Source: a virus. From it: a stretch of 64,000 bases of DNA. Shown here one piece after another: positions 6,750 to 49,506 of the stretch. The notes beneath the pieces are model-generated. The model had not been told where the DNA came from. It did not search any database and saw only the letters and a program-made list of their open reading frames with translations. Position numbers and translations under genes: made by a program. Location: UHGV virus genome UHGV-1430915; one strand, given 5' to 3'. Each line of letters opens with the position of its first letter. The first letter of the stretch is position 1.

Positions 6750-6786
6750 TTTAGCATCTCCTTCTGTAAATTACAACAGGTATTTG

Positions 6787-7032: not shown

Positions 7033-7049
7033 CTTAAGGTCTCCTGATA

Positions 7050-8015: not shown

Positions 8016-8046
8016 TGCTGTGGTCTCCTTTCGTTTTGATAGGGCC

Positions 8047-8075
8047 ATTATATTAGACCCCATCTCTATTGTCAA
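8047..8075 (-). promoter_or_regulatory. perfect-consensus sigma70 promoter, leftward (TTGACA-17-TATAAT)
   Basis: Complement of 8070-8075 is TTGACA, 17-nt spacer, complement of 8047-8052 is TATAAT. Confidence 0.65.
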
Positions 8076-8078
8076 GTA

Positions 8079-8333
8079 TTAATGCTCAGGTTTTACAAAA
8101 ACTACTTCGTTAACAGTGCACCAGACAGAATCCCCTTCATCATCTTTAAAGGTAAGACACTGGGCCGAGTTTTCCAACTCATCAAGTTCTTCTTGTGATA
8201 AATAGGTCCCTTCTTCCAGAAGGGCTTTTACCAGAGGGTTCTCACAAAACTCTGCTTCATAAATTGCACCGAGTGTGCAATCTTTAAAAGCTCGGTCATT
8301 TGCAACGCATTCTGGCTTCAAAGTGATTTGCAT
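8079..8333 (-). CDS. small acidic protein, paralog B of a tandem pair (84 aa)
   Basis: ORF track; motif sharing with 7743..8015. Confidence 0.5.
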   Translation of the reverse strand: MQITLKPECVANDRAFKDCTLGAIYEAEFCENPLVKALLEEGTYLSQEELDELENSAQCLTFKDDEGDSVWCTVNEVVFVKPEH

Positions 8334-8384
8334 CTTAGCAGTCTCCTCAATTATTTAAAAATCAAATCTCTGTTTGTGTGAAGT

Positions 8385-8413
8385 ATCTTATATCCAATCT
8401 TACTTCTTGTCAA
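8385..8413 (-). promoter_or_regulatory. sigma70-like promoter, leftward (TTGACA-17-TAAGAT)
   Basis: Complement of 8408-8413 is TTGACA and complement of 8385-8390 is TAAGAT; same -10 variant as the plus-strand promoter at 27527-27555. Confidence 0.5.
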
Positions 8414-8781
8414 TGGCTATTTTCAATCATCCACACAGGGTCGAGGTAAATTTGTTGGCGTTTTGCCCAATGACAAACTTCATTGTACATCTGAATCTCT
8501 TTGTCTGTCAATTCACGAATAGGCTCATCTATACCCTCATTTTTGTGGTAATCCCAGTCGGCATCGATTTCCCACAACCATGACTTACGATCTTCACGCT
8601 TACGCACACAGAAGTCCCCAGGACGGCCTGCCAGTGCATTTAAGAACTCGTTCTCCGCTCGCTCCTGAAGAATACTAAGGAGCAAAACGTTGGAGCATGA
8701 CCGTAAAATATGCTTCAGCTCACAATCATCGATCTCAACTTCAATACGTTGCTTGACTGTGTGGGTACCTTTTACTAACAT
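8410..8781 (-). CDS. hypothetical protein (123 aa from MLVKGTHTV...)
   Basis: ORF track frame; start moved to ATG at 8781 with strong SD GAGGAGG, removing overlap with the gene ending at 8792. Confidence 0.5.
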   Translation of the reverse strand: MLVKGTHTVKQRIEVEIDDCELKHILRSCSNVLLLSILQERAENEFLNALAGRPGDFCVRKREDRKSWLWEIDADWDYHKNEGIDEPIRELTDKEIQMYNEVCHWAKRQQIYLDPVWMIENSH

Positions 8782-8791
8782 TCTACCTCCT

Positions 8792-8986
8792 CTATACAAA
8801 CTCTGCAAGGGTTGTGTTGTTCACCGCACCGCAGTAGATGGAATATCCCAACCCATTAGGGTGCAGAAACCACGGCACACCTTGGTCATCCTTCACGTAT
8901 ACATCTCCATTTTCCGTGAAGGGCCAATACTCTTCCCCAAGGGTAAAATACCTACTCATACCTTCAGCCAGATACTTTACTTTCAT
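8792..8986 (-). CDS. small protein, member 1 of a tandem three-gene paralog family
   Basis: Shares the F..G..Y.V ... KDD(Q/R)G..W(F/Y)L ... G ... pattern with the two genes upstream. Confidence 0.45.
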   Translation of the reverse strand: MKVKYLAEGMSRYFTLGEEYWPFTENGDVYVKDDQGVPWFLHPNGLGYSIYCGAVNNTTLAEFV

Positions 8987-9210
8987 AGATCCTCTTCAAC
9001 AACTACAAACTTGGCAAGTAGGGTGGTCCCATAGATATGATACTCACCATTTGACAGATGGGAGATATACCAGGAGATACCGTCCTCGTCTTCGATCATA
9101 TTGTTCCTGCGATCCTTATCGTAATAAACCTTGTAGACCTTACCTTCTTCAAAGAATGACAGGTCTGTCATCTTTTCTTCTACAAACGTAGCTTTAACCA
9201 AAGTTGTCAT
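8983..9210 (-). CDS. small protein, member 2 of the tandem paralog family
   Basis: EEGKVYKVYYDKDRRNN...DGISWYISHL matches the family pattern; stop/start overlaps with neighbours. Confidence 0.45.
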   Translation of the reverse strand: MTTLVKATFVEEKMTDLSFFEEGKVYKVYYDKDRRNNMIEDEDGISWYISHLSNGEYHIYGTTLLAKFVVVEEDL

Positions 9211-9491
9211 TGATCTGTCTCCTTCTTGTTGAGCCGGAACACTGCAATAATAGCATTTCCAAGATGCAGTGTCAAATCATTCCCCAGATACCATAACATT
9301 CCACGGTCATCTTTAATGAAAGGGTAACAATCCGGTGCCTTCCAGACATTATACACTTTGCCGACCTGAAAGAAATCAGGCCCTGTTGGAATTTTAGTAC
9401 CGGGCCACACTTGGGACACCTGAACGCACTCTACCTGCATAATGACAGGGATAGTCATGGAGGTAAATGTTTTTGTTGGTTCTACTACCAT
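9207..9491 (-). CDS. small protein, member 3 of the tandem paralog family
   Basis: QVGKVYNVW...FIKDDRGMLWYLGNDL matches the family pattern. Confidence 0.45.
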   Translation of the reverse strand: MVVEPTKTFTSMTIPVIMQVECVQVSQVWPGTKIPTGPDFFQVGKVYNVWKAPDCYPFIKDDRGMLWYLGNDLTLHLGNAIIAVFRLNKKETDQ

Positions 9492-9542
9492 AAAAGTCTC
9501 CTCTCTTTGTCTAACAACACTTCCGTGTGTTGATAGTTTACA

Positions 9543-12320: not shown

Positions 12321-12378
12321 ATACAGTTCTCCTTAAAGGGGAGGCGGTTGTACTACCCCTCCCACTCTTGGTTAAACA

Positions 12379-14457
12379 TTAAAAAGGTGTTTCGTCGTCT
12401 TCAAAACCCGGAACGTGGTTAGAGGACGGATCATCATACTGAAGATCTTCCTGTGTGTCAACAGGGTTAACAGCAGGAGTTATAACTTTATCAGCCACAA
12501 CCTTGCCCACAGGTGTTTCTACAACTGCATGCTCCTGATCCTCAAACATAGCTTGAGGTCTCCAAACAACCTCCCCACCTTCCCCGTCTGTAAACATCTG
12601 CATTTCTTTATCCCAATACCAATTGCTGGCATCGTGGAACTTGCCTGTGTGGGGATCCATAACTAGAGTGTCCGCAATACCTAAGGTTTTTGCTGGGCGG
12701 TTTTTAAGACCTACCAGCCGGACACGTCCACGGGAACGATCCACCATCTCCTCTGCCTCTACCCCGACAACCACCCAGCTAAGTTGCTCCAATCCGGCAC
12801 TACCGCGAAGGTTCTCTTTTCGTACAGGGTACCAGAAAGGTAACGGATTTCCATCCTTATCCTTCGGAGGTACAATCTCTGTGCGCTTCAGGTGAGCAAT
12901 CACCAAGATAAACACATTAAACTGCTTACAGAACGCGGCTAGTTGAGTCATAGCCATGTCAAGCTCTTTACGCTCATCCTTAACATTAAGCCCTGAAATC
13001 ACCATAGACAGGTGATCCAGCACAATGTAACGGCAGTGATACAGGCACACCATTTGTTTAAGCTTAGTGATCAGCTCATCTACAGGAATGGAGCCGAAAT
13101 GCTTGAACACTTTGATTTTTCCGGCCTTGGCCCAAGATTGATGAATCTCAGCGTGCTCCTGATCGGTCAGGAACTGACTGGGGTCTTCAACAAACTCTTT
13201 AACATCAAACCCCAGCTGGTTAGCGTACAGAGAGTTGATTGCTTCCTCAGGATCCTCTTCAAGGTGAATCAGGCACAGGCGATCATCCTCTTCATAATCA
13301 TCAGCTTTAGGGCATGTTGGATCCATCAAGTATCTTGCAATGCAATGTTCCAGCTTCTTGGCTACAGTTGTTTTACCACCGCCAGACGGGCCTGTCAGCA
13401 TCATCAAGGTGCCTTTGTGGAGTCCTTTCAGCATCTTCTGCAGTTTAGGGAACTCTGCACTGATATCTACGCCATTGGAAGTCTTCTTACGAAGAGATTC
13501 AATGGAGAAGTCTTCTAAATCAGATACAGCATCAGGCACATATTTGACTGGGTGACGGAACATGTTGACAATATCTTCCAGCTTTTTAGCCTTCAGCATG
13601 TCACGGATATCTTTTACACCATCAGGATCGTTTACCTCGCCAGGATATTCCACGTGGTAAACGTTGTCAGCCATCAAAAATGCTGCGATATTATGCGTAG
13701 CTTCAACACCTTTGATAACGTGTTTTTGCTTCTCTACCTCGTTAGCTGCATCGTTGTCCATTGCAAGGACTACTGTTCCGTAGCTACGGATAAATTTCTC
13801 ATTGTTCGCAAAAGTGTCTACTGCGTTTGCACACCCGCAGTTAATTCCAACAAAAGGCAGGCATGGTTTTCCTGCAAGATCGCCGCCGTTGATAACTGCA
13901 TCGATCCCATCCTGGACTTCTTTAGCCCACTGCTTCACCTTCGCTGGGGCTTTAGCATTGGTGAGAATTCCTTTTACTTGTACCTGATATGCAGCCTGCC
14001 ACGCTGCAATAACATCCCCTTCCCCCTCACAAACGTTAATCTGCTTGCGGTTGTTGGAGGATGCACACAGCTTTTGACCAAACATCTGGGAGTTGGCCTT
14101 TACTATGCCGACAACCGAGAAATGGCCCCTTTGCTCTTTAGGGATTGTCCAGTCACGCTTTTTAAAGCCAGATAGATTACCGTAGCGGTCGTAATACGGA
14201 AAGTAGGTGGCAGTAACAGTTACACCATCCTCTTGGGATAGCGATGATCGTACACCAAAATATTGTGCAGCCATCAGTCCAATATTTTGTTGTGGAACAG
14301 GGACAATTTTAGTATTTTCTAAAACAGTTTCTACAGTTTCAACTTCTTTTTCATCACGATAGTCTCGTTTCACACTTCCCCCACTTTTATACTTAGTTGC
14401 TTTCGGGTTTGGCTCACCGAAACGGTTGTATGCAGATGCCATGAATTTACTGCCCAT
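12379..14457 (-). CDS. bifunctional DNA primase/helicase (TOPRIM + DnaB-like; T7 gp4-like)
   Basis: TOPRIM acidic motifs CEGEGD and MDNDAANE; Walker A GPSGGGKTT; C-terminal acidic tail ending FEDDETPF. Confidence 0.8.
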   Translation of the reverse strand: MGSKFMASAYNRFGEPNPKATKYKSGGSVKRDYRDEKEVETVETVLENTKIVPVPQQNIGLMAAQYFGVRSSLSQEDGVTVTATYFPYYDRYGNLSGFKKRDWTIPKEQRGHFSVVGIVKANSQMFGQKLCASSNNRKQINVCEGEGDVIAAWQAAYQVQVKGILTNAKAPAKVKQWAKEVQDGIDAVINGGDLAGKPCLPFVGINCGCANAVDTFANNEKFIRSYGTVVLAMDNDAANEVEKQKHVIKGVEATHNIAAFLMADNVYHVEYPGEVNDPDGVKDIRDMLKAKKLEDIVNMFRHPVKYVPDAVSDLEDFSIESLRKKTSNGVDISAEFPKLQKMLKGLHKGTLMMLTGPSGGGKTTVAKKLEHCIARYLMDPTCPKADDYEEDDRLCLIHLEEDPEEAINSLYANQLGFDVKEFVEDPSQFLTDQEHAEIHQSWAKAGKIKVFKHFGSIPVDELITKLKQMVCLYHCRYIVLDHLSMVISGLNVKDERKELDMAMTQLAAFCKQFNVFILVIAHLKRTEIVPPKDKDGNPLPFWYPVRKENLRGSAGLEQLSWVVVGVEAEEMVDRSRGRVRLVGLKNRPAKTLGIADTLVMDPHTGKFHDASNWYWDKEMQMFTDGEGGEVVWRPQAMFEDQEHAVVETPVGKVVADKVITPAVNPVDTQEDLQYDDPSSNHVPGFEDDETPF

Positions 14458-23762: not shown

Positions 23763-24947
23763 TCAAGCTTTAGCTAAAATGGCGCTAAACTCTTCACCAA
23801 ACTCTTTTACAATCTTCATCAGGTTTGGGTATGCTTTGATCAGCTGAGCAACGATCTTGTCCCTGCCTTTACCAATAAGTAAGGCATTTCCTAAGGCGTT
23901 AGGTTTCATCATCGCCATAAAGACTGAGAATACAAAGTCTCGGTTCTCATCCTTGAAATTTTCCCAAAGGAAATCAAGGAAGTTTGCCACACAGCTGACG
24001 AGATCTTCGTCGGAGATACTTGCATTTTCCATCATATTACGAATAGCGATACAACCTTCAGACCCCAGAATCCACAAGATGTCTGGCTGCTTAGGACCTA
24101 CATATTCTTTGCAGCCTCCTGCCATAATCCGACCGATTTCTGGCAAGTTTCGTTTCTTGGTGTGGTAGGTCCAAATTTCTACCGCTGCAGTGTGACCAAT
24201 TGCACCTTGTAGAAGGACACGGGCCATAGCGTCAGAAATAATACCGCTGTCAAAATCGTGCAGGATGTCAGATGCAGCAACCCAAGATCGCGGTGTAGCA
24301 AAAGATGGACAATTAATCTCAGCCATGGCCTCATAATTATCGATGGCTGATGGGACTCTTTTCAGATATCCAATTACCGAGGAGTGCACCCCATTAAGGA
24401 ATGCATAGTCCTCAATAAACACCTCTGCACTGCTTGTAACTTCTACAATGATAAAGCGGTTAGCTAGAGGAGCTTCGAGCGCCGAAAGAACAGCACCGTC
24501 TGTAGCACGGTTACCTGCAGCTACAAAAACAGAGCCCTTAGGAAATGCATAGGTGCCGCACTTGTGGTCGAGCATAATTTGCATTGCAACCTTCTGCAGG
24601 TAGTTATCTGCATGAGTAAGCTCATCTAGAAAGATAATTCCGCTCCAGTCCGGATCTGCAGGCCAAAATTCTGGAATTGCAAACACTGTGCGTGTAGTCC
24701 CATCCGACTCTACAGGGATAGGTAGCCCAGATAAGTCAGCAGGATCTTTATCTGACAACCGCACGTCAACCAGGTTGTCATCTCGCTCACCGAACATATT
24801 ATCAGCAATCTGCTTCATCACCTGGCTCTTCCCCACGCCCATCGGTCCTAAAATCAGGACAGATCGGTTATGACGCTGGGCAAATTGAATAATAGCTGGC
24901 AACTCGCGGACAGTGATTTGACCACTTTCGAATACGTTTCTTGACAT
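23763..24947 (-). CDS. MoxR/CobS-type AAA+ ATPase (AAA_5)
   Basis: Walker A ILGPMGVGKS, Walker B IIFLDELTHAD, sensor region AAGNRATDG; 394 aa. Confidence 0.7.
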   Translation of the reverse strand: MSRNVFESGQITVRELPAIIQFAQRHNRSVLILGPMGVGKSQVMKQIADNMFGERDDNLVDVRLSDKDPADLSGLPIPVESDGTTRTVFAIPEFWPADPDWSGIIFLDELTHADNYLQKVAMQIMLDHKCGTYAFPKGSVFVAAGNRATDGAVLSALEAPLANRFIIVEVTSSAEVFIEDYAFLNGVHSSVIGYLKRVPSAIDNYEAMAEINCPSFATPRSWVAASDILHDFDSGIISDAMARVLLQGAIGHTAAVEIWTYHTKKRNLPEIGRIMAGGCKEYVGPKQPDILWILGSEGCIAIRNMMENASISDEDLVSCVANFLDFLWENFKDENRDFVFSVFMAMMKPNALGNALLIGKGRDKIVAQLIKAYPNLMKIVKEFGEEFSAILAKA

Positions 24948-26269: not shown

Positions 26270-26548
26270 TTAGGCAACTGTCATTTTACATTCTTGAAAT
26301 TTTAGCACAAGACGGTGATTGTGTCTAGTGTCTAAAAAGATTTTTTCAACCATCAGGCACACGGTATAACCGTCTGTCTTGTTGACAACAAAATCCCCAG
26401 GGTGAGGGAGAATGTCCCCAGGATTGGGGAAACATAACCCGCTCAAGAAGGCATCATCGGTGGTGGACTTAATGGATTTCCACACACTATCTGCCTGAAC
26501 ATTCTCACCAACATAATATACACTACCACATGACTTCATCATAGTCAA
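26270..26548 (-). CDS. hypothetical protein (92 aa)
   Basis: ORF track. Confidence 0.45.
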   Translation of the reverse strand: MTMMKSCGSVYYVGENVQADSVWKSIKSTTDDAFLSGLCFPNPGDILPHPGDFVVNKTDGYTVCLMVEKIFLDTRHNHRLVLKFQECKMTVA

Positions 26549-27444
26549 ATCTCCGCGTAAATTAAACTGGAATCAGTATACTTCTTTAGTGGGTAAATAT
26601 CCTGTCCATAGATGCCGTCATTAAACACCTCATCTACCCAAAGGCTACACTTATATCCCATCATCTCTAAAACACCCATCTCTTCTTCGGTAAACTTATC
26701 ACCGCTCTTGCAAGATGTCAACACCTCATTCTGTACTCTTGCTACCTCGAAGCGATTATTGGCAATATCGCTATTGGCGATCAAATACTCACCTAAAGGG
26801 TGTGCGGCATTAAAGATGCACAGTGGGCGGTTGACGTAATAGTCTCCCGGTGTATAAAAATTGTTGAGATCCTTCACCAGAACATTCTTATCAGTCACTT
26901 CATTTATAACATCATGCATATCACACATCTTTATATGTTTGAGGATTCCATCCCCCATCACAAAATAAAAACTTGCTGAGACACTCTCGGCATAGATCTT
27001 ACTAGATCCGTTGTAGTTGTATTTTACGCGAATGCTTACAGGGGTTTTGCCTGTCGCGTTAGCCATCATCCAAAGGAACGGAAGTTCAAACTTCTCCTCT
27101 GAGGAAACAAAAGGTGAAGTTGCCAGAGATCGGAAACCACCAGAGAAGTTGAAAGTTACAGAGCCGCTCCGGCGATATGATACCGCATATTCTACTTTTA
27201 TATCGACATAGCCGTTGGAGTAAGTGTGGCCTCCATTATCCAGATATGTCCATTTATCAGATCCGGATACCAGCCTACGCTCAATAACCTTCATTACTAT
27301 AGGAATTAGCGGGTTGGTACAAACCGATTTTGAAGTAGCTTTATCATCCAAAGCCTCGTAAATTGCAGAAAGGATATCGCCTGCTGAGAGATTGGTTGTG
27401 ATATCTTGTTTCCACCTGGTGCTAAAACTGTTAAGATTTGCCAT
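26545..27444 (-). CDS. hypothetical protein (299 aa from MANLNSF...)
   Basis: ORF track frame; start moved to ATG at 27444 with SD AGGAG; first gene of the leftward block at the strand-switch point. Confidence 0.5.
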   Translation of the reverse strand: MANLNSFSTRWKQDITTNLSAGDILSAIYEALDDKATSKSVCTNPLIPIVMKVIERRLVSGSDKWTYLDNGGHTYSNGYVDIKVEYAVSYRRSGSVTFNFSGGFRSLATSPFVSSEEKFELPFLWMMANATGKTPVSIRVKYNYNGSSKIYAESVSASFYFVMGDGILKHIKMCDMHDVINEVTDKNVLVKDLNNFYTPGDYYVNRPLCIFNAAHPLGEYLIANSDIANNRFEVARVQNEVLTSCKSGDKFTEEEMGVLEMMGYKCSLWVDEVFNDGIYGQDIYPLKKYTDSSLIYAEI

Positions 27445-27526
27445 GATTAGGTGCTCCTGTGTTCGTTTTCTTTCGAATGGGTGCACTATATCGTGGATTT
27501 AGAGTAAAGTCAACACGTTTTTGAGG

Positions 27527-27555
27527 TTGACATCTTCCCAAGCACTTGATAAGAT
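27527..27555 (+). promoter_or_regulatory. sigma70-like promoter, rightward (TTGACA-17-TAAGAT) at the divergent strand switch
   Basis: TTGACA at 27527-27532, 17-nt spacer, TAAGAT at 27550-27555. Confidence 0.55.
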
Positions 27556-27586
27556 TTCTCCACCTACAGAGCACAAGAGACAACTC

Positions 27587-28576
27587 ATGAATCTTGAAAA
27601 ATATTATACACCAGAAGAGTTAGAGCGCCTGCTCAAAAAATATAGACGCAAACAGAATAATGCACGGAAACGAGATATAGAGTTCAACCTGTCATGGGAA
27701 GAATACCTCCTATTTGGTAAAAAACTTTTAGGAGATGGGGTATGCGACTATACCCTTATACCTTTCGACATGCACACAGATGAAAACGGACTGGGAAATC
27801 CTTTCTACCCATCTCTAGAGCGGATAGATGATGAAGGTCCTTATGCGGTTGATAACTGCTGTGTGGTGGGATTGAGATGCAACTCTCTAAAGGACTGTCT
27901 GGTAGATAAAAAGACCGCAGTCTTGATTAAAGACAAAACTGATCGAAAAATTGTCCAGCAGATGATGCTCCACCTGAGCGAAGAGCGCATGGAGAAATTG
28001 AAAGGTGATTACACTTTTGAAGATTTCATCTTGCAATATGGGACGGAAGAGGATAAACTGGCACTCTTTGACGAAGAATGGGAGGAAGATATGTCACCAA
28101 TGCAGGATTTTAAAAACTTCATGGCTAATCGTGGAGCCAACAAGCACATTTCTGACATCGTAAATGAGCCTATAACAGAAGAGATTGAAGAAATGATGCA
28201 ACAGGATCACGAAGAGGAAAAAGAGCCTCAAGGGGGCGAAGAAGAGCTTACAGAAGAGGTTCCTGCACTGCCTGACGATGTTGAGATTGCCAAAGCTTAC
28301 ACTTTCTATTGCCAGACGTTCTACGATGCGGGTATGAAAGTTGATTTGTCATTCAGCCAGTTTAAGAGCACATACATCCGAAAATGTTGTGCTTTAACTG
28401 GTGAGCGTCTCGGGGTCGGACTTAAACCACTATTAGTGACCGACTGGAATAAAGGTTTCACCAAGGGTAACTTTATGGTAGTATCTCCAATTATGGAGAA
28501 GGCTATGACAGACCTTATGAAGACAACTCGCATGACAATGACCGAGTTGGCTGGTATTTTCAAGCACGTTAAATAA
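27587..28576 (+). CDS. hypothetical protein with a degenerate His-Me/HNH-like cysteine-rich segment
   Basis: Start set at ATG 27587 (MNLEKYY...); segment GDGVCDYT...SLERIDDEGPYAVDNCCVVGLRCNSLKDC resembles an HNH/EndoVII zinc-finger spacing but lacks the catalytic His. Confidence 0.4.
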   Translation: MNLEKYYTPEELERLLKKYRRKQNNARKRDIEFNLSWEEYLLFGKKLLGDGVCDYTLIPFDMHTDENGLGNPFYPSLERIDDEGPYAVDNCCVVGLRCNSLKDCLVDKKTAVLIKDKTDRKIVQQMMLHLSEERMEKLKGDYTFEDFILQYGTEEDKLALFDEEWEEDMSPMQDFKNFMANRGANKHISDIVNEPITEEIEEMMQQDHEEEKEPQGGEEELTEEVPALPDDVEIAKAYTFYCQTFYDAGMKVDLSFSQFKSTYIRKCCALTGERLGVGLKPLLVTDWNKGFTKGNFMVVSPIMEKAMTDLMKTTRMTMTELAGIFKHVK

Positions 28577-28588
28577 TGACAGGGGCCA

Positions 28589-30070
28589 ATGGCCCCTTCT
28601 GGAGTTTTAATGGATAGCAGAAGTTCAGAAATCATTGCCGCACAAAAAGATGACGCCTTGCGAATGCTGCAGGCAGCACGCATGTATCTTCTTGAAAAGC
28701 TGCCGTTTTATGGCACACTGTTGTCAGGGTTGCAGTTCGTAGAAAACCACACATGGTGCTCCACTATGGCAACAGACCATAAACGCATCTACTACAGCCC
28801 TGAGTTCATTATGGGGTTGGCAGATGAGCGTAAAACCATTCTTAAAGCATCTCTGACTGACAAGCAGTTTGAGATGGCTGAGGTTTTCTATTCCCCAAAA
28901 TCTGTGAAAGAGGTGGCCTTTCTTCTGTCACATGAGGTGGGGCATATTATCTGTGATCATCTGGTCCGTGGTAAAAGCTTTGAGCCGGAACTGTTCAATA
29001 TTGCTTGTGATCACGTTATCAACACAGGTCTTGTGGTTGACTTTAGCAAGCCTCCTTGTGTTTTCTTCCCGAAGGGGAAAAGTACTGAGTTCGTAAAAGG
29101 TAAGCCTTTTGGCTTCTTAGCTAGTTGCTACTGTGACATGAGGTTCCATGGATGGATTGCTGAGAACGTTTATGCAGTTCTTGATAAGCAAAGAGATCAG
29201 AATAGCGGTAAAAGTAAGAACGGTAAAGGAGAGAACTCTCAAGGAGATAAACGACAAACCGATGATCACATGAGTGGGAACGGTGGAACTAGTGATGATC
29301 TTGGAAAGGCTATGGGGTATGATCAGCCACAGCCAGTGATCAGTCAATCTGATAAAGATCAAGCCATGCAGGACTCTGGTGACATGTTGGAAGCAGCAAT
29401 GCAAGCTTCCGGAGGTCGTTGCCCAGAGGCGGTGCGTGAGTTTGTCAAGAACAGAGGTAAGCCTGTAATCAATTATATAGACATCATTAAGCAACGTATG
29501 TTGTCCAAACGAAAGGCTGAACTAACCTACAGAAAACCTGGTCGCCGATCTGGGTCTTTGACCAGCACAATGCGAAAAGTTGGGGCTATAAAAAAGAATC
29601 AGCACGTTGTTGTTCCTGGTCGTAATCCGGAAAACACTATAGATATTGTGGTGGCTTTAGACGTTTCTGGGTCGATCTCACAAAGAACTTTAAAGAAAAT
29701 GTTCAATGAGATCACTGGGTTGTGCAATCTATATAAAGAGTTCAAGGTTACGATGTTCTGCTGGTCAACCGAGGTTGGAGAGGTTAAAGTATACACTCGT
29801 GGGAACATCGACGAGATGATCAACTATGAGGTCCACTCAACATGGGGCACAACAGCCGCTTGCGTGTTCAAGTATCTGGACGCTAACATACCAAATGCAA
29901 AAGATGTCATCGTCCTGACCGACCTATACTTTGAGCATAACTTTGAACAAAAGGCTGTTGACAACAAGTGGAAAAAGTACGATACTTTATGGGTTCTCAC
30001 CGAAGGGTATAATAAAAATTATATCCCAAGCTTTGGGAAAACTGTAGAATTGATCGAGTACGCTAAATAA
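28589..30070 (+). CDS. VWA-domain protein with N-terminal putative metallopeptidase (HExxH) domain; DUF2201/CobT-like, typical MoxR partner
   Basis: HEVGH zinc-binding motif; MIDAS motif VVALDVSGSIS. Confidence 0.65.
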   Translation: MAPSGVLMDSRSSEIIAAQKDDALRMLQAARMYLLEKLPFYGTLLSGLQFVENHTWCSTMATDHKRIYYSPEFIMGLADERKTILKASLTDKQFEMAEVFYSPKSVKEVAFLLSHEVGHIICDHLVRGKSFEPELFNIACDHVINTGLVVDFSKPPCVFFPKGKSTEFVKGKPFGFLASCYCDMRFHGWIAENVYAVLDKQRDQNSGKSKNGKGENSQGDKRQTDDHMSGNGGTSDDLGKAMGYDQPQPVISQSDKDQAMQDSGDMLEAAMQASGGRCPEAVREFVKNRGKPVINYIDIIKQRMLSKRKAELTYRKPGRRSGSLTSTMRKVGAIKKNQHVVVPGRNPENTIDIVVALDVSGSISQRTLKKMFNEITGLCNLYKEFKVTMFCWSTEVGEVKVYTRGNIDEMINYEVHSTWGTTAACVFKYLDANIPNAKDVIVLTDLYFEHNFEQKAVDNKWKKYDTLWVLTEGYNKNYIPSFGKTVELIEYAK

Positions 30071-30085
30071 GAGAGGATGTTATTT

Positions 30086-30346
30086 ATGGCAACAGAAGTA
30101 GTAATTAAAGCTGAACGCCCAGTTAAAAAAGCTATCAACACGTTTCCTGTAGGGACCATTGTGAGCATGATTACAGAGTCAGGTCGTGTATCTACACTGC
30201 TGATCGTGAAATCTGCATGCTCATCTTGTGTGTGGGCATATGATCTTGACGAGAAAGAACTGAAAGATTTTGTTGGAGAGCTGAAAGCAACAGAGCTTGA
30301 CGCTCGTATCGAAGTGTTTGGTGAAACTATGGAGGAAGAACAATGA
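30086..30346 (+). CDS. small protein, member 1 of a plus-strand tandem paralog trio
   Basis: Start at second ATG (30086, 9 nt after SD GAGAGGA); shares AE(R)P...F.(V/C)G(T/E)(I/V)V ... pattern with the next two genes. Confidence 0.45.
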   Translation: MATEVVIKAERPVKKAINTFPVGTIVSMITESGRVSTLLIVKSACSSCVWAYDLDEKELKDFVGELKATELDARIEVFGETMEEEQ

Positions 30347-30606
30347 CCACAAAAATAACCATTGCAGAACCGAAAGCTAACACGCAGCCTATCGAAAAGT
30401 TTAAATGCGGTGAGGTGGTAACATTCACACCTGACAATGAAGATGCTAAGATTTTCGCCATGGTCACAGCCGAGTGGATGTGTGACAACACCACACAGGT
30501 TCTGCGTTTTGACACCTATCTTACAGATGAAATCAGGAACGATAAGATCGTGACTGGTGTGGATACTGAGATTATTTTCTACAAGAGCTTTTTAGAAGGT
30601 TTCTGA
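30343..30606 (+). CDS. small protein, member 2 of the plus-strand paralog trio
   Basis: ORF track; ATGA overlap with the upstream gene. Confidence 0.45.
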   Translation: MTTKITIAEPKANTQPIEKFKCGEVVTFTPDNEDAKIFAMVTAEWMCDNTTQVLRFDTYLTDEIRNDKIVTGVDTEIIFYKSFLEGF

Positions 30607-30607
30607 T

Positions 30608-30841
30608 ATGGCGAAAATTCGTAAATTATCCAGCAATCAGGTTGTGAAAGACTTTGAATCTGGAGAGATTCTGTATGTTCGTGATGCAGATGACGAAGGT
30701 GAAGATCTTGTTATGCTAGTAGGACACGCTGAAGACGGATGCATCCAAGCCGTTTTTCTTGAAACAGCCATGGTGCACTGGATAGAGCTGGACCTGAAAG
30801 CACGAAAACCTAAAGCAGAAATCCTGATTTACGAAGATTAA
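30608..30841 (+). CDS. small protein, member 3 of the plus-strand paralog trio
   Basis: ORF track; FESGEILYVRDADDEGEDLVMLVG matches the family pattern. Confidence 0.45.
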   Translation: MAKIRKLSSNQVVKDFESGEILYVRDADDEGEDLVMLVGHAEDGCIQAVFLETAMVHWIELDLKARKPKAEILIYED

Positions 30842-30857
30842 CAAAAAGGAGAGAGCC

Positions 30858-31307
30858 GTGTTGAGCAAACGTGAATGCGACAGCATTAGCCTGAATTCTT
30901 ATAAGAAACAATGGTTTGGGGTGGAAGTTTGCCGACTGCGGCTAGGCTCCTACCTGAACTTCGTTTATTATGAGAGTGATAGTCGTATTGTTTCTTATGA
31001 AGTGTTCTACACCAAGAACACCTTCGAACTGCGCCGTAAAGTGGATGGTGGGAGAACTACCCCCCAGAATAATTGGGAAACTATCCTACCTACGGATGTT
31101 ATAGGAAGTCCCCTGAATGTATCTGAAGATGAAAATCTTATGGTTCATGCTATGATGGGACTTGACAGCTTAGAGCTGGCGATCTATGATATGTCCATCG
31201 AAGCAGTTAAGCTGGACTACATCGAAAACACTTTAGAGGAAGGTATCAAGAAGTTCCTCAGTGAGAAATTAAAAGACCACTTTCATAAGGAGCTATACCT
31301 GTTATGA
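30858..31307 (+). CDS. hypothetical protein (149 aa)
   Basis: ORF track. Confidence 0.5.
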   Translation: MLSKRECDSISLNSYKKQWFGVEVCRLRLGSYLNFVYYESDSRIVSYEVFYTKNTFELRRKVDGGRTTPQNNWETILPTDVIGSPLNVSEDENLMVHAMMGLDSLELAIYDMSIEAVKLDYIENTLEEGIKKFLSEKLKDHFHKELYLL

Positions 31308-31549
31308 AGACCCGTAAAGAACGTAACAAAATTTTACCTGGAGCTCTCGAACACCTGATGAAGTGCAGATCTATTTGGCACTCTGCCAAGGAAGGGCAGA
31401 AGGTGGTTGTGGTTAGTGACAATACCAACCCGTTTGGAGATTATACCACTATGATGGCTCCATATGTCCGTGATGGCGTTGTGGAAGTTGTCCCTTACAA
31501 TGGTCTGCATGAACGGCACTTTGAAAGCACTTTACTGGTGGAGCTATAG
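31304..31549 (+). CDS. hypothetical protein (81 aa)
   Basis: ORF track; ATGA overlap. Confidence 0.45.
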   Translation: MKTRKERNKILPGALEHLMKCRSIWHSAKEGQKVVVVSDNTNPFGDYTTMMAPYVRDGVVEVVPYNGLHERHFESTLLVEL

Positions 31550-31551
31550 TC

Positions 31552-32118
31552 ATGGCGGTCAATGTGGCTTACAACACAGGAAAGCTTGACAGAGACATTG
31601 GGTGTCTTGTCCTTTCAGATACAGAAGAGTATTGGGGTTATGGGTTGCTGTCAGACCCACACCCGAGCAACCTTGTATCAACAGTGCTATACCGCTACGA
31701 CCCTGTGCCAACGGTACACGACAAAGACATTCACGACCTTCGGATCAAGTGCCTAGAAGATCTGCTGGACAATGGTTGCAACGATCTGCGGGTAGCCAGG
31801 GAGAAGCTTACAAATATTCACAAAGAGGAAGTGATGAGCACTCTCAATAAGAGATCAGTGCACAAAAAGATGATGCTGAATTTTGCAATGGGTATCTACA
31901 TGGATGGGTATAAGGGAGGTGATCCGATTCTCAAGCTTCGCTGCCCAACACTGTGGGAAAGGGTGGTTGACAGCAAGGACGGTGCTGCCCTGCTTGAGCT
32001 ACACACTGCAGGTTGGATATGGCGGTATGTTGATGGATACCCTTTATGGGCATGTGGGCCTGGGGAATTTGTTGACAGGCCTAGTGCGGTGGTGGACTTG
32101 CTATTGCAGTTTGAATAA
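31552..32118 (+). CDS. hypothetical protein (188 aa)
   Basis: ORF track. Confidence 0.5.
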   Translation: MAVNVAYNTGKLDRDIGCLVLSDTEEYWGYGLLSDPHPSNLVSTVLYRYDPVPTVHDKDIHDLRIKCLEDLLDNGCNDLRVAREKLTNIHKEEVMSTLNKRSVHKKMMLNFAMGIYMDGYKGGDPILKLRCPTLWERVVDSKDGAALLELHTAGWIWRYVDGYPLWACGPGEFVDRPSAVVDLLLQFE

Positions 32119-32173
32119 AAGTGGGATATAAGGTGTTCATGCACCTACCAACAATACAACAAGAGAGACTGAA

Positions 32174-32449
32174 ATGACGAAAGAAGAAGCTGACGTATTA
32201 GATTTTGCACTGGAGGCTACGCAAGAGGCTCTGGTGTTAGCTTGGAAAATGAACCAGCGTGCTGCAGAATGCAACCGCCGAATCAATGAGATTCTAGGCA
32301 TGTCTATGTATGATTTCACTATGCATGCTGGAGAGATTCCTGAATTAACTGCAGAGATGAATGATCTTGACAATAAGATTAATATCATTCTGAAGACAGC
32401 AGAAACAACTCACCAAACCGCCCGTAAATTTATCAACGAGAAGGTGTGA
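32174..32449 (+). CDS. hypothetical protein (91 aa)
   Basis: ORF track. Confidence 0.45.
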   Translation: MTKEEADVLDFALEATQEALVLAWKMNQRAAECNRRINEILGMSMYDFTMHAGEIPELTAEMNDLDNKINIILKTAETTHQTARKFINEKV

Positions 32450-32916
32450 ATATGGACTACAGCTACTGCGGGGAAGAAGTTCCTTTTAATTACGGCAATC
32501 TTACCACGAGCAATCCATATGAGACTCGCCACGGCACGCACATCATTGCCATCGACTTTGATGGAACGTTTAATGCGAGCCCTTTCATCTTCTCCCGCCT
32601 GATCAGGGATCTGAAGAAGGAGGGGTGGACAGTCTACCTTGTGACTTTCCGATTCATTACTCAAGACAATGTAGACATTGAGTATTGGCGCAAGGAGCTC
32701 GATGTTGGTGTGTTCTACACAGGCGGTGTGCAGAAGGCAGCCTACTTGGCGCAGTTTGATATCTACCCAGATATCTGGATTGATGATTCTCCGGCATGTA
32801 TTCCGGCTAAGAATCAGTTAGAGTTTGCAATGAAGGAGATCGAGTATAAGTCTGCGGCTAAGCGGAACGGATGGCCCTTTATTATTGAAGATTACCCAGA
32901 TCCTGAACCGGAGTAA
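32446..32916 (+). CDS. HAD-superfamily phosphatase-like protein (possible 5'-nucleotidase/polynucleotide phosphatase)
   Basis: Motif I IAIDFDGTF (DxDGT), motif II LVTFR, Lys in GGVQKAAY, motif IV IWIDDSP. Confidence 0.45.
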   Translation: MNMDYSYCGEEVPFNYGNLTTSNPYETRHGTHIIAIDFDGTFNASPFIFSRLIRDLKKEGWTVYLVTFRFITQDNVDIEYWRKELDVGVFYTGGVQKAAYLAQFDIYPDIWIDDSPACIPAKNQLEFAMKEIEYKSAAKRNGWPFIIEDYPDPEPE

Positions 32917-32920
32917 GAGC

Positions 32921-33091
32921 CATGAGGCGAAGATATCATTACCTGATGTGGAAGTTATATCAAAATGCTGCCAAAGCCTATCATATCATGTTTGGCAATG
33001 ACGATCACTACATCATGTTACATCTCACCGCTATTGAGCATCACAATGAGTGGATTCATGCAATCGTGGCAGGTGATAAAGACTTTAAGTA
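32921..33091 (+). CDS. candidate small ORF (56 aa, MRRRYHYLMWKLYQNAAKAYHIMF...)
   Basis: Fills the gap between neighbouring plus-strand genes, GGAG upstream; below the ORF-track cutoff. Confidence 0.25.
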
Positions 33092-33142
33092 AAATATACC
33101 TCAAAAACGTATAGTGCGGCTTTCTAGATGGAGACTGATTAA

Positions 33143-33523
33143 ATGTGCAAGTGTAAATCCTACAATTGGAAAGTGAAAGGTGCCAAGCACCAAAATGTTA
33201 TCGTTGATGTGCCTAAAAAGCTCCGTGACGGCAAAAAACGTGTGTGCCTTGATAAGTGCATGGCTAAGCCTGTCATGAGTCTATGGGCGGCGGGATTGAA
33301 AACTCTAAACTGCTGCTGTGGTCATAACAAAGATGTTCCAAGTATCATTATCCCAGAAGATGCAGACCCTAAAGCTTATGCCAAAATACTGACCCGCTAC
33401 CCCAGCACCTTCCTGATCGGAAAATGGTGTCACGATGAACTTCAATGGTGGGTAGCATACGGTAGTATAGGTACTGCTTTTGGCTTCCCAGCTTTGTCAG
33501 AGCGCTATGTCAAAGTGTCATAA
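33143..33523 (+). CDS. hypothetical cysteine-rich protein (126 aa)
   Basis: ORF track; clusters CKCK, CLDKC, CCCGH suggest metal binding. Confidence 0.45.
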   Translation: MCKCKSYNWKVKGAKHQNVIVDVPKKLRDGKKRVCLDKCMAKPVMSLWAAGLKTLNCCCGHNKDVPSIIIPEDADPKAYAKILTRYPSTFLIGKWCHDELQWWVAYGSIGTAFGFPALSERYVKVS

Positions 33524-33627
33524 TAGAATTTAAGGCCTCAAACGAGGCCTGTGCCTTCATAAATTTCCCCACCCTGTGCGATTGCCTTCCTGAATAAAAT
33601 ACCCTCTCAGATCTCTTAAAATTAAGC

Positions 33628-33656
33628 TTGACACCAACACCAGATCTATATATAAT
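33628..33656 (+). promoter_or_regulatory. perfect-consensus sigma70 promoter, rightward (TTGACA-17-TATAAT)
   Basis: TTGACA at 33628-33633, 17-nt spacer, TATAAT at 33651-33656, after a hairpin AGGCCTCAAACGAGGCCT at 33533-33550. Confidence 0.65.
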
Positions 33657-33684
33657 TCTCACCAACCAAACAGAGGAGATCGTC

Positions 33685-34092
33685 ATGGATAATCTTGCAG
33701 ATGTAAATGTCGAAATTGTTAAACTAAAGTTCTTGGGCTTTCGAGACCCTTATTCTTTAACAGCCATACTAATGGATACTCACTTCACACCAGGTAAAGA
33801 GTACACTGCCTTCCGTTATATTTGCGGAGATCACGAATCGGCTTATAGTGTGAATACAAACCTCGGCGAGGGATATTTCATCAGAGATATCACAGATCAC
33901 TTGTGGGGTATGTGGGAGTTGGTGGGGGAAGAGAATAAATCCCTTCCTAAAGAGATTTGGGTGCACACCTTCCACACAGGCAAGTTTGGAGGTACGGAAC
34001 ATAAGTCTATCCACTATGATGAAGAAAGTGCCATCAAGCAACAAGCTGTGCTTGGTGGATCTGTAGAAAAATTTGTTAAATGCGAGGACTGA
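33685..34092 (+). CDS. hypothetical protein (135 aa from MDNLADVNVE...)
   Basis: Start moved to ATG at 33685 (SD GAGGAG) downstream of the 33628-33656 promoter; the track ORF start at 33628 would overlap the promoter. Confidence 0.5.
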   Translation: MDNLADVNVEIVKLKFLGFRDPYSLTAILMDTHFTPGKEYTAFRYICGDHESAYSVNTNLGEGYFIRDITDHLWGMWELVGEENKSLPKEIWVHTFHTGKFGGTEHKSIHYDEESAIKQQAVLGGSVEKFVKCED

Positions 34093-34095
34093 GAA

Positions 34096-34296
34096 ATGGC
34101 TGATTTTTGTAAAGATTGCTCTGAAGAGTTGTTTGGCTTTGACTGCAAAGATTTGGAAGGTCTGATCACTGAGGATCAGTGGAAGGAAGGCTATGCAGCA
34201 CCTGTTATTTGTGAAAGTTGTGGCTATACCTATGTTGACCATAAAGGTAAGCGCGTCAAGCCGTCTGAAGATGGGGCATGTTGGGAGTATTACTAA
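34096..34296 (+). CDS. hypothetical zinc-ribbon protein (66 aa)
   Basis: CKDC ... CESCGY cysteine pairs. Confidence 0.45.
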   Translation: MADFCKDCSEELFGFDCKDLEGLITEDQWKEGYAAPVICESCGYTYVDHKGKRVKPSEDGACWEYY

Positions 34297-34300
34297 CTAT

Positions 34301-34334
34301 AAAAAGAAAGGGGCCAAACGGCCCCCTTTTTTTA
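34301..34334. terminator. bidirectional rho-independent terminator between convergent gene blocks
   Basis: GGGGCC-AAAC-GGCCCC hairpin with an A-tract on one side and T7 on the other; closes the plus island and the leftward structural operon. Confidence 0.65.
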
Positions 34335-34346
34335 TTTACCCCCTTG

Positions 34347-37300
34347 TTAACGAGAAAAGGTTGCGTAGGCTTCTAGACGATACTGCTGGTCACCAGGGAA
34401 CATAACACCTATAGAGGCTGTCCCTAGAATCCTGCCTTCCTTTCCAGACTCCATTCTAAACCCTACCCATCCTGAACTCCTTGCAGCCTCGATGTTGTCG
34501 CTATACCCGAAAGTGGCAAGATCGTCAACACCAGCCCCAAACAGCAACTGAAGCTGACTTCTCGGAAGCCCTATAATTTCAGGAATATACGCACCAAAGT
34601 ACACCATCTGCCCTACCTTAGGACCGCTGCCGTACTCCATCGGTTTGCTTGTAGAGAAAGTCTTCATACCAGAAGTACCTGCCGGATTAGGGTATGCCCC
34701 GTTTGTTGCTGTACCTATCCACATTCTCCACTGAGGTGCCATCTGTCTGACAGTAAACGATGTTGAAGACGTTTTGCGGCCTGCATCATCTGTAACTACA
34801 AACTTTATGGTGACATTCCCAGTAGCTTTAAATGTTACCAGTCCTGTGGTGGCATCTACTGTTGCAATGTTGGTATTACTACTTTCCCAAGTCTTTCTAA
34901 TCCCGGCTACGTTGGAAGGGGTAATAGAAGGTTCCTGCATCTGCAGTTTACCACCAACAATCCCTATGCCGTTGCCCGGATTATACAGCGCACCAACCTC
35001 GTCTATAATGTTCCCTGCTTTGAGACTATACTTCCTTGAGAAGTTGTAGGTTCCGTTATAAGCGTGTGTCCCTGAGAAGGTGACATCTGCCTTCCCGTAA
35101 GAGATGCAAACCAAAGCATACTTCCTGTCAGGCAACGTTTCTCCAGTTTCTGGGTGAGTTTTACCTACCTGGAACACACTCGGGTCAGTGGAGTCGTGGC
35201 TATCACTGACGGAGCTTGGACCACCCATCAGCTGTGACAAGCAATTCCTTACCCATGTCCAGTTATTATCACTGGAGAAGTCCACAGTCAAATCAAACAC
35301 AACCCACTCATTCGGCTTCCACACAGGTGTTGCAATGGACTTGCCTACACCACCTCCTTGGAGGGTTGCCGACTGTTCGGTGATCAGGGCCGCATAGGCC
35401 AGAGTTCCTAAACTCAGAGTCTGGCTTGCTGTCCTCACTACCTTAGAATCAGCATCTGTGAAGTTGTTGATGATCTGGAATGTGCCATAAGTGTTTTTAC
35501 AGGTAATTCTGGCGTTCAGTGTGTCAATCTTCCTCACATCTGCCATAGCAGTGTTAGACACAGAGAAGTCAGAAGCTTTAGCTGAGTTTGCCGCAACAGC
35601 AGGATCAACGTTAAGAGTTGCGTTGAACTGGCAGGCAGGGGTAACCAGCAGCTTGTTATCACCTATTTGCTTCCATGAAACACTTTGAACAGGGAGATTC
35701 CATTTAATACCTGAGAAAACCTTAGCAACCCTTGGACCCAAAGCTCCAGTCCTGTTGTCTTTACAGCACATAGACATGGTGATCGTTGACGGAGTGGCCT
35801 GACCAAATAATTGCTGTGCTTTTGCAGAGGACATAGTGTAGAAATTGTCCTTGACAAACTCATCAGCGGCTAAAGATCCATCAGCCCTCCACCACTGAAC
35901 CTGATACCCTGTTTTGTCCCAACCACCGACCTGCTTCAAGTCCTCCCAGGAGATTTCTAGATCCCCAGTGGTAGGGTTGATTGCAGCAGTTCCCGGTGTT
36001 CCGGGTGACCACAATGGAATATCAAACCACGCTGGTTTAGCCGACTGCACTGCGTTAGGTCCTATTGCAGCAGCAAGTTGTCGACCCATCAATACGCGGG
36101 TATCTTTCACAAAACCCCACTCGATCATAGACCCAGAGTAACCTTCTTTCTTGTAGGCAGGAGATCCGTTCAAATGGATAAGTCGGCTTGTGCCAAAGTT
36201 ATATGCCCCGCCACCGTTATCATCTGCAAAATTGTATATGATTCTATCCCTAATATCTTTCCATGCCCTACCGCCAATCTCGTAGTCATGGTCATAGCAT
36301 CTTTGCAGCGTTGTCCAGCAAATGATTGCCATCCTTCTACCATTGCTGAAGCCGAAAGCCTGATCGTTAAGCTCTCTCCACAAATAGCAGTTTGTGGTCC
36401 ACATAGCTCTGTGGATGTTGAACCAGTTTATAGACCTGGCCGCGTTGTTATAGTCAGTGCCTTCTAGAGTAGGCCACACTGCATTAACCAGCATGTCCTC
36501 TGTCCCTGCATCTATCAAGAATCCTCTAACTTTCTTACCCATTCCTACTCTGTCCTTGGCAATCCATGTGCCAAATAGTTTCAGTTTAGGACCGATTACT
36601 GCATCCTCTGGATGCTCAAGAGAGACATACTTCAAGTATATTGTAGGATCACCGTAGGTGCCATCACAAACAGCTTTGTGCATGTTCTCACCAAGGTCCA
36701 GACGGATACCTGTAAGAGTTTTGGTAGTATCCGTGAGCTTATCTGTCAAATCAAACTCGTACCACCACCATCCGGCCCCAAGTAAAACTTTCTTGCAGCG
36801 CTTAGAGTCTGTGTCAGAGATTCTTTTATCTCCAGCATAGGGTGAGTCTGCAAACTTGTAGTGCAGAGCAACTTCAAAAGGATGTGTAGATGTTCCGTCT
36901 TCTGCAAGGACTGGCTTCCCGATCAGATCGCACTTAATAATCATCACGACACGTCTGTACCCATTAGCAACTGGAACGTCGAACGGATATCTCTCACCAT
37001 TCATATTCGCATGCACGGCTGCGAAATTTATATATGGGTCAACAGCGTTACCTAGAGTCTCAGGTCCCGGGATTATCTTGTACTTCTTGACCTGCCCCAT
37101 AATATAGTCGCTACCGTAGGTTGCAGCCTCGAAGCAAGAACCTGTATCAGGTAGTTCAGCAGGCCCCCAGAAATATGCGCCATAACAGTTATAAAACCAC
37201 TTGTTAGGGTCGTAGTTGTTCTTAAAGGTCTGAACCTCATTAGCCTGTTTCAACAAGAAAACCTGCGTATCTGTAAAGATTGCAGGATTCACCCTTGCCT

Positions 37301-49435: not shown

Positions 49436-49506
49436 GTCACTCCTCCGGTATGAAAATCTCTACAAGGTATTTTACCAAATTTTGTAACAATAGTCAATCT
49501 GAGCAT

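Follow-up and report, generated by a model that had tools for sequence, protein, structure and literature searches.

A plus-strand gene block in a Vequintavirus genome likely corresponds to the rightward arm of the early region of phage rV5

The 64,000-nucleotide stretch of viral DNA analysed here (the window), from UHGV virus genome UHGV-1430915, contains a single 6.9-kb block of genes on the plus strand, running from ORF11 to ORF26 (ORF, open reading frame). We suggest that this block is likely to be the rightward arm of a bidirectional early-gene region of a Vequintavirus, and equal to the unit 'genes 11-26', one among the four transcription units described for phage rV5 by Kropinski et al. 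(2013; Virol J 10:76). In its general features the block looks like a non-structural unit that is driven by the host polymerase and has a host-takeover flavour. Sequence comparison indicates that it is made up of a conserved backbone interspersed with genus-specific filler.

The correspondence with the rV5 unit is seen at the level of nucleotide sequence, gene order and regulatory signals. When window positions 27000-35000 were used as a megablast query, 122 phage records were matched, of which 113 align over 80% or more of the query with 90-99% identity. The matches comprise Escherichia phages belonging to Vequintavirus (rV5, FV3, Murica and the BASEL phages) and, in addition, 16 deposits named 'Campylobacter phage'. 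The latter (e.g. MG065644, MG065690 and MG065672; host Campylobacter jejuni) are unannotated and about 94% identical to the E. coli rV5-like block, and are probably either mislabelled or the result of coliphage contamination of those preparations. A single collinear blastn alignment joins rV5 (DQ832317) positions 6609-13484 to window positions 27451-34333 with 94.0% identity and the gene order kept. The GenBank record of rV5 is annotated with ORF11-26, promoters P11 and P20 and two terminators; Table S4 of Kropinski et al. (2013) lists P010, P011, P020, the internal promoter P025, t026 and t027, and the same authors noted that the skew of rV5 flips at borders which match those of the block in the window. 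Gene order, P010, P011, P025, t026, t027 and the skew flips are thus all alike in the two phages. The differences are that the -10 hexamer of P025 is perfect in the window (TATAAT) and reads TAGGAT in rV5, and that ORF12 is intact in the window, in place of the ORF12 (441 amino acids) and overlapping ORF13 of the rV5 record. Like the window, most relatives have one intact ORF of 486-493 amino acids (28589-30070 in the window), with about 98% protein identity; the rV5 counterpart at 7756-9217 is split, probably by a frameshift or a sequencing error in the deposit. Since Kropinski et al. (2013) had published the unit together with its promoters and terminators, the identity of the block is already known. 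What is added here beyond that description is the existence and frequencies of two dimorphic slots, profile support for an array of paralogs, a link between ORF12 and an ATPase, and corrections to annotation.

The anatomy of the block is clear from the window itself. Long, non-nested ORFs occupy the minus strand at 687-27444 and again at 34347-63908, and the plus strand only at 27587-34296. The guanine-cytosine (GC) skew is +0.07 to +0.17 solely in the 2-kb intervals spanning 27-34 kb, and is zero or negative in the others except for a value of +0.01 in the first. ORF map and skew therefore agree with the preliminary description of the sequence, which held this to be the only plus-strand block. 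Its statement that the genome is otherwise transcribed leftward is right for the window and does not extend to the genome, since rV5 has another rightward unit, genes 82-163 (Kropinski et al. 2013).

On its left side the block begins at a divergent junction of 142 bp (27445-27586), lying between the ATG of ORF10 (27444, leftward) and that of ORF11 (27587). This junction carries back-to-back sigma70-like promoters whose -35 hexamers are 13 bp apart. The leftward promoter, at 27485-27513 on the minus strand, is TTGACT-17-TATAGT (10/12 match; P010 of rV5), and the rightward one, at 27527-27555 on the plus strand, is TTGACA-17-TAAGAT (10/12, with an extended -10 TG; P011 of rV5). Both -35 hexamers and the leftward -10 hexamer are identical in rV5, and the rightward -10 is one base off (TACGAT); in phage PVP-SE1 a promoter is annotated at the equivalent place, ahead of its Srd-like gene. 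The rightward promoter had been recognised in the preliminary description and exists as given there; the coordinate 27444 with which that description opens the block marks the ATG of the leftward gene and not the promoter. A TTG at 27521, a possible start for the first gene, sits under the promoter, and the actual start of ORF11 is the ATG at 27587.

A second promoter lies within the block at 33628-33656 on the plus strand (TTGACA-17-TATAAT; P025 of rV5, where it scores 10/12); downstream of it come a GAGGAG Shine-Dalgarno sequence and then the ATG of ORF25 at 33685. The perfect consensus that had been claimed for it was confirmed, and it is one of merely three 12/12 sites in the 64 kb. The other two, at 2923-2950 and 8047-8075, are on the minus strand in the left arm, as are eight 11/12 sites between 3.4 and 25.2 kb, all of them in the sense direction; such an array is typical of an early region crowded with small genes. 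Counted together, sense-direction sites of at least 11/12 number ten in the left arm and two in the block, where an 11/12 promoter-like site occurs inside ORF17 at 31162-31190. The right end of the block is formed by a hairpin at 34307-34328 (t026 and t027 of rV5), with a stem of 6-9 bp containing six GC pairs and a T-run after it on each strand (fold z = -3.7 and -3.3). It scores as an intrinsic terminator on both strands, in keeping with the bidirectional terminator proposed earlier, and is common to the block and the convergent tail-fibre gene.

Comparison within and between genera helped to separate the stable part of the block from the variable one. At least 80% of the block is present, at 90-99% identity, in 114 of the 122 matching records, and variation within the genus is confined to two small segments with sharp breakpoints, here called slots A and B. 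Further afield, PVP-SE1 (Seunavirus) and KPP-1 (Mydovirus) share a leftward arm that bears an ATPase gene, a divergent junction, and then, rightward, genes for the Srd-like protein (ORF11), the VWA protein (ORF12), in PVP-SE1 also gp17 (ORF17), and the HAD-like protein (ORF21). Identity of these backbone proteins across genera is 27-48%, with values for the PVP-SE1 and KPP-1 homologues of 38-40% for ORF11, 43-45% for ORF12 and 44-48% for ORF21, and of 27% for ORF17, whose homologue (PVP-SE1 gp215) is encoded directly after the VWA gene; the ATPase of the leftward arm reaches 50-54%. The ten other small genes of the block found no match in the PVP-SE1 and KPP-1 loci.

From its sequence signals the block is probably expressed early. 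Its promoters are all of the sigma70 type, and it lacks the T4-late-like motif TGGTAAAATA that Kropinski et al. (2013) reported ahead of the late genes of rV5. In the window this motif occurs only at 49468-49477 and 54979-54988, both on the minus strand in the tail region, where each copy lies just upstream of a minus-strand ORF (these two ORFs end at 49435 and 54948). Block and tail-fibre gene converge, with the terminator insulating one from the other. Nor do the products of the block appear in the particle: the 19 proteins found in rV5 virions (gp1, 27, 30, 32, 33, 36, 37, 41, 42, 43, 45, 49, 52, 53, 60, 61, 64, 133 and 228) do not include any of gp11-26.

The first gene of the block, ORF11 (27587-28576, plus strand), suggests a role in host takeover. 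Its strongest PHROG match is to phrog_3118 (E = 4.5e-111), which is labelled HNH endonuclease, and weaker matches are to Srd anti-sigma factor, sigma70 decoy and endonuclease VII families (E = 1e-10 to 1e-13), with values of 4.7e-10 for phrog_1400 (Srd) and 5.8e-12 for phrog_4592 (sigma70 decoy); there was no match in Pfam or NCBIfam. Residues 8-143 align with T4 Srd by BLASTP (E = 2e-7), and Kropinski et al. (2013) already regarded rV5 gp11 as probably an Srd homologue. The Srd segment matched by these residues also matches residues 253-299 of ORF11 (E = 0.002), a sign that another, degenerate copy of the Srd N-terminal domain may lie near the C-terminus. The repeat is visible only with T4 Srd as an intermediate, and was missed by direct Smith-Waterman alignment of the N- and C-terminal parts. 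When ORF11, its PVP-SE1 and KPP-1 homologues and T4 Srd are aligned, the position of the HNH catalytic histidine reads (S/T)xER(I/F)D, with no histidine, and one conserved cysteine stands where a CxxC is expected. The earlier term 'degenerate HNH-like' is therefore correct and Srd-like is the best name; the N-terminal domain resembles HNH and endonuclease VII proteins and is predicted not to be an active nuclease.

The likeness to T4 Srd consists of a homologous N-terminal domain of about 100 amino acids that has similarly lost the catalytic histidine, and of position, since T4 srd is an early-region neighbour of modA and modB and ORF11 is likewise the first gene after a sigma70-like promoter. 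ORF11 is however longer (329 against 248 amino acids), and has an acidic linker and the second, weaker Srd-N-like module at its C-terminus. T4 Srd is a postulated decoy for sigma70 and sigmaS, and is described as stimulating RNase E and so bringing about the destruction of host mRNA (Qi et al. 2015, as cited in PMC7430671). Between ORF11 and ORF12 there is a GC-rich hairpin at 28581-28597 on the plus strand, AGGGGCCAATGGCCCCT, for which a 51-nt RNA gives -18 kcal/mol (z = -3.1). It encloses the first in-frame ATG of ORF12 (28589) and is annotated as a terminator in Murica; it may serve in transcription attenuation or in translational gating of ORF12.

ORF12 (28610-30070, plus strand) encodes a putative metallopeptidase of the HExxH type that also has a VWA domain. 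The start at 28610, which follows a GGAG, is more likely than 28589, since the latter lies inside the hairpin, and the resulting form of 486 amino acids is the one annotated in Murica, RudolfGeigy and JEP1. Pfam domains DUF2201_N (E = 4.3e-28, 99.1 bits, cut-off 23.2) and DUF2201, which is VWA-like (E = 4.7e-10, 40.1 bits, cut-off 26.4), both score above their gathering thresholds, and the translation shows HEVGH and a MIDAS-like DVSGS, so that the VWA/HExxH protein of the preliminary description is well founded. Its family, phrog_1314, is named 'HNH endonuclease' in RefSeq and PHROG and 'anti-sigma factor' in some records; the RefSeq and PHROG labels on this protein, and on ORF17, look wrong and propagated. 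The literature searched held nothing on the function of DUF2201 in phages.

It is likely, judging from gene neighbourhoods, that ORF12 has a partner outside the block, namely an AAA+ (MoxR-like) ATPase encoded at 23763-24947 on the minus strand in the leftward arm (phrog_1297 ATPase, E = 2.4e-110). The name 'MoxR ATPase' is taken from the annotations of rV5 and PVP-SE1, and against solved AAA+ proteins (PDB sequences) the match is by way of the Walker A region only. In phiTE (Certrevirus), the N4-like phage ECBP1 and the jumbo phage GAP32 the homologues of the ATPase and VWA genes are on the same strand and are adjacent or one small gene apart, an arrangement that would link the function of ORF12 to that of the ATPase; in this genus, and likewise in Seunavirus and Mydovirus, the two genes stand on either side of the divergent junction with 3-4 kb between them. 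In the co-occurrence of an AAA+ ATPase with a MIDAS-type VWA protein the pair resembles the bacterial MoxR AAA+/VWA systems (RavA-ViaA, CbbQ-CbbO and NorQ-NorD). It differs from them in that the phage VWA protein bears an N-terminal HExxH metallopeptidase-like domain (DUF2201_N), that the ATPase falls below every MoxR cut-off in Pfam, and that in this genus a divergent promoter separates the two genes. In phiTE the place between the ATPase and VWA genes, where this genus has the divergent junction, is taken by a gene (8475-8987) for a small protein bearing an HNH-type DHINGN...N motif. With 17% identity this protein has almost nothing in common with the Srd-like protein; insertion of a homing endonuclease is a possible origin.

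Of the remaining backbone genes, ORF17 (30858-31307, plus strand, as are all genes described below unless otherwise indicated) belongs to phrog_6790, and its label 'tail protein' in RefSeq and PHROG finds no proteomic support in the rV5 virion. ORF21 (32446-32916) is a minimal phosphatase-like protein of the HAD superfamily. Its four motifs, D37-x-D39-x-T41, T67, K97 and D113-D114, are in the order I-IV and invariant in six sequences at 43-67% identity, and the HAD assignment made earlier holds at motif level; a HAD-like domain was also remarked on by the annotators of Murica. The AlphaFold2 model of ORF21 is mediocre, with a mean predicted local distance difference test score (pLDDT) of 59, and shows strands and helices in alternation. 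The order of motifs is as in small capless (C0) HAD phosphatases such as KdsC or the phosphatase domain of T4 Pnkp, and the alternation in the model would fit such a fold. The protein differs from HAD families in having no Pfam or NCBIfam HAD match, and from T4 Pnkp in having no kinase domain. A part in RNA repair, with ORF21 acting beside an RNA ligase 2 in the manner of T4 Pnkp/Rnl, was considered and rejected, there being no Rnl2 homologue in the window. A second phosphatase-like gene, distinct from ORF21, is present in the left arm (3401-3940, minus strand); its product shows 33-35% identity to the proteins annotated as 'putative phosphatase' (Tk.4-like) in PVP-SE1 and KPP-1.

The other small genes between ORF17 and the terminal cassette are mostly members of PHROG families that carry no functional name. 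They include ORF18 (31304-31549; phrog_4868), without a homologue in the PVP-SE1, KPP-1 or phiTE loci, and ORF20 (32174-32449; phrog_12604). ORF19 (31552-32118; 188 amino acids) is restricted to the genus, matching phrog_12232 only and giving no Pfam, NCBIfam or cross-genus match, and ORF22 (32922-33092; 56 amino acids; phrog_12006) is rich in histidine, with seven histidines and no cysteine. ORF24 (33143-33523) has eight cysteines (6.3%) and is probably metal-binding; the motif MCKCKSYN...DKCMAK...CCCGHNK is kept across homologues at 55-91% identity, and its AlphaFold2 model was unusable (pLDDT 51). At the end of the block ORF26 (34096-34296; 66 amino acids; phrog_2210) is zinc-ribbon-like, with six cysteines (9.1%) in which there are two CxxC pairs, and has a homologue in the Felix O1-like phage WV8 (rV5 Table S3, Kropinski et al. 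2013). The several cysteine-rich small proteins of the preliminary description are accordingly two, ORF24 and ORF26. Searches of PDB sequences with ORF11, ORF12 and ORF21 returned nothing meaningful, NCBIfam gave no match for any protein of the block, and a word-indexed homologue search with ORF21, ORF24 and ORF14 found close relatives only, these being without Pfam annotation.

Between ORF12 and ORF17 are three small genes for proteins of about 85 amino acids, ORF14 (30086-30346; phrog_10698), ORF15 (30343-30606) and ORF16 (30608-30841), which had been described as a tandem trio of paralogs. No pairwise BLASTP similarity exists among the three. Homology of ORF14 and ORF15 is supported by a profile comparison in hhalign (ORF14-family profile against ORF15, P = 4.2e-5 over 83 collinear columns), and to this extent the description stands. 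ORF16, the most divergent member, is attached weakly (P = 0.014 with the ORF14 family, 0.023 with ORF15), in an alignment to the array that is collinear and has invariant F20, G23 and I75. Smith-Waterman shuffling gave z values of 3.25 (ORF14-15), 3.9 (ORF15-16) and 0.9 (ORF14-16), with alignments that are collinear from end to end. An exhaustive HMMER search with the profile of the trio recovered 11 representatives among 1.84 billion, consisting of rV5-like small proteins and two long multi-stretch proteins, at least one of which is a repeat protein; the array is therefore without a link to a known family.

Slot A coincides with the body of ORF14 (30097-30330). The allele of the window, with one gene, is found in 69 records, and 44 records have an alternative with two genes of 87 amino acids each, making the array four members long. 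The products of these two genes are 39-41% identical to ORF14 and 38% identical to each other (E = 4e-11), a case of clear paralogy. Slot B (33560-34070) comprises the internal promoter and ORF25 (33685-34092), which has PHROG matches of no stated function, and whose C-terminal part (residues 91-135) has its matches in other small PHROG families. Here the window allele occurs in 89 records, and an alternative cassette, encoding proteins of 109 and 72 amino acids, in 30. The alternative has its own promoter, TTGACA-18-TATTCT with a TG, and its 72-residue protein is 51% identical to residues 13-82 of ORF25. The breakpoints are sharp, at 33559/33560 and 34070/34071, homology to the alternative allele ending at 33559, just past a hairpin at 33533-33551 on the plus strand that marks the left edge of the exchangeable cassette (AGGCCTC-AAAC-GAGGCCT, -13.9 kcal/mol, z = -3.3, no T-run after it). 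ORF26 is kept at 88% identity next to either allele.

In several ways the ORF25 cassette is like the morons of tailed phages, which are genes set between conserved ones and equipped with a promoter and terminator of their own: it has its own promoter in both alleles, sharp breakpoints just beyond a hairpin and a downstream terminator, and it is swapped between otherwise near-identical genomes. It is unlike them in that the phage is virulent, that the exchange is allelic replacement rather than presence or absence, and that its terminator also serves ORF26 and the operon in its entirety. All four combinations of slot A and slot B alleles occur, one in rV5 and the window and the others in Murica, JEP1 and RudolfGeigy, and recombination between the slots is therefore implied. 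RudolfGeigy has the two-gene allele in slot A and the alternative cassette in slot B, and the BASEL phage AlexBoehm can be aligned to the full block of the window without interruption.

Several points weigh against the interpretation of the block as an early host-takeover arm, and should be set beside the evidence in its favour. Early timing is argued from promoter consensus only, and in rV5 sigma70-like promoters occur throughout the genome, the late genes included (Kropinski et al. 2013), which makes a promoter of this kind weak evidence for timing. The number of promoter-like sites in the region as a whole, 24, is not above chance (shuffle expectation 17.3 +/- 5.0), and the literature searched contained no expression data or transcriptome for the Vequintavirinae. 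With respect to function, the link to Srd covers the N-terminal domain of ORF11 only, at 24% identity. The AAA-family scores of the ATPase in Pfam all fall under the curated cut-offs (AAA_5 16.9 bits against 22; bpMoxR 15.7 bits against 27), and in this phage its gene is 3.6 kb from the VWA gene and on the opposite strand. Finally, the top PDB matches of the ORF21 model in Foldseek, KdsC (3i6b) and the P-domain of CopA (2voy), do have the HAD fold and are weak (E = 9e-3 to 1.3e-2, TM score about 0.4).

Early, small and fast-evolving genes are the usual profile of anti-defence functions, and it could be argued that some or most of the small proteins of the block inhibit bacterial immunity, the best candidates being the ORF14-16 array and the ORF25 cassette. 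The array varies in both allele and copy number, with alleles that are 38-41% identical in a genus that is otherwise about 94% identical, and its family is tiny and restricted to one lineage. The terminal cassette, with two alleles and a promoter of its own, and the recombination implied by the four slot combinations, would also fit such a module. We nevertheless consider it unlikely. The scans of the block proteins against Pfam, PHROGs and NCBIfam found no similarity to any named anti-defence family, and the literature searched did not link any Vequintavirus gene to counter-defence. The Vequintavirinae are moreover reported to be exceptionally sensitive to restriction-modification and commonly hit by abortive-infection systems (PMC8594841). 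The 95-100% identity inside each allele class looks like the shuffling of two old alleles and not like ongoing diversification. Of the host-takeover or anti-defence cargo envisaged in the preliminary description, the host-takeover part finds support in the Srd-homologous first gene, and the anti-defence part does not find any, as no gene matches a known anti-defence protein.

That the whole 6.9-kb block is an acquired accessory module, imported as a unit and present or absent among relatives, was suggested by its inverted strand with its own promoter and terminator, by its many small, lineage-restricted genes without known function and by its two dimorphic slots, and is very improbable. The synteny check that had been proposed for such a variable cargo island was made and largely refutes it, since the block is near full-length in 114 of 122 records and the same junction and backbone order recur in Seunavirus and Mydovirus; furthermore its GC content (0.43-0.46) resembles that of the flanks, the likely partner of its VWA gene is outside it, and the scans of ORFs and families revealed neither integrase nor transposase genes, nor repeats at the flanks. 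In bacteria, MoxR/VWA pairs serve as chaperones in maturation, and together with the 'tail protein' label of ORF17 and the abutting lateral tail-fibre operon this might suggest a late structural module of virion or assembly proteins, expressed with the neighbouring tail-fibre genes and including an AAA+/VWA assembly chaperone. We find this scarcely credible, given the absence of gp11-26 from the virion proteome, the convergence with the tail operon across a terminator, the missing late-type promoter motif, and the position of the ECBP1 ATPase-VWA pair among RNA polymerase and nucleotide-metabolism genes and not structural ones.

If the block is the rightward arm of an early region, its operation might be pictured as follows. 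Host sigma70 RNA polymerase would initiate at the two back-to-back promoters at 27.49-27.56 kb, as we infer from their sequence. The leftward transcript would carry the AAA+ (MoxR-like) ATPase among others. The rightward transcript would supply first the Srd-like protein, with its predicted catalytically dead HNH-like domain, which by homology to T4 Srd probably aids host shut-off through RNase E or sigma factors, and next the VWA/metallopeptidase, probably working with the ATPase of the other arm. There would follow the tandem array of three (four in other phages) small lineage-specific paralogs, then the minimal HAD-type phosphatase and a few small metal-binding proteins. The second strong promoter would drive the self-contained terminal cassette of ORF25 and then ORF26, and both the rightward transcription and the convergent late tail-fibre transcription would end at the one shared bidirectional terminator.

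Elsewhere in the window two features deserve mention. The region at 1-686 has no long ORF on either strand, and positions 1-2000 differ from the remainder of the left arm in having a GC skew close to zero; the whole window, this region included, yielded neither tRNA genes nor Rfam families. The minus-strand gene at 26545-27444 carries the label 'putative alpha 1-3 fucosyltransferase' in rV5, which rests on an old, weak BLAST hit; its product matches nothing in Pfam or NCBIfam and, among PHROGs, only a family to which no function is assigned.

Because it mainly confirms a published annotation, the identification of the block matters little as a finding. It does correct labels that have been propagated in RefSeq and PHROGs, where the VWA/metallopeptidase is called an 'HNH endonuclease' and gp17 a 'tail protein'. 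It also draws attention to the pairing of an AAA+ ATPase with a VWA-metallopeptidase, which is widespread in phages. As a tentative idea, to which we attach a rather low probability, slots A and B might be recombining determinants of host range or counter-defence, each allele neutralising or avoiding a different host factor, and, separately, the ATPase and HExxH-VWA protein might constitute an early remodelling or protease machine common to N4-like and jumbo phages. Both alleles of both slots are already represented in phenotyped collections such as BASEL, which would make a comparison of genotype with phenotype cheap.

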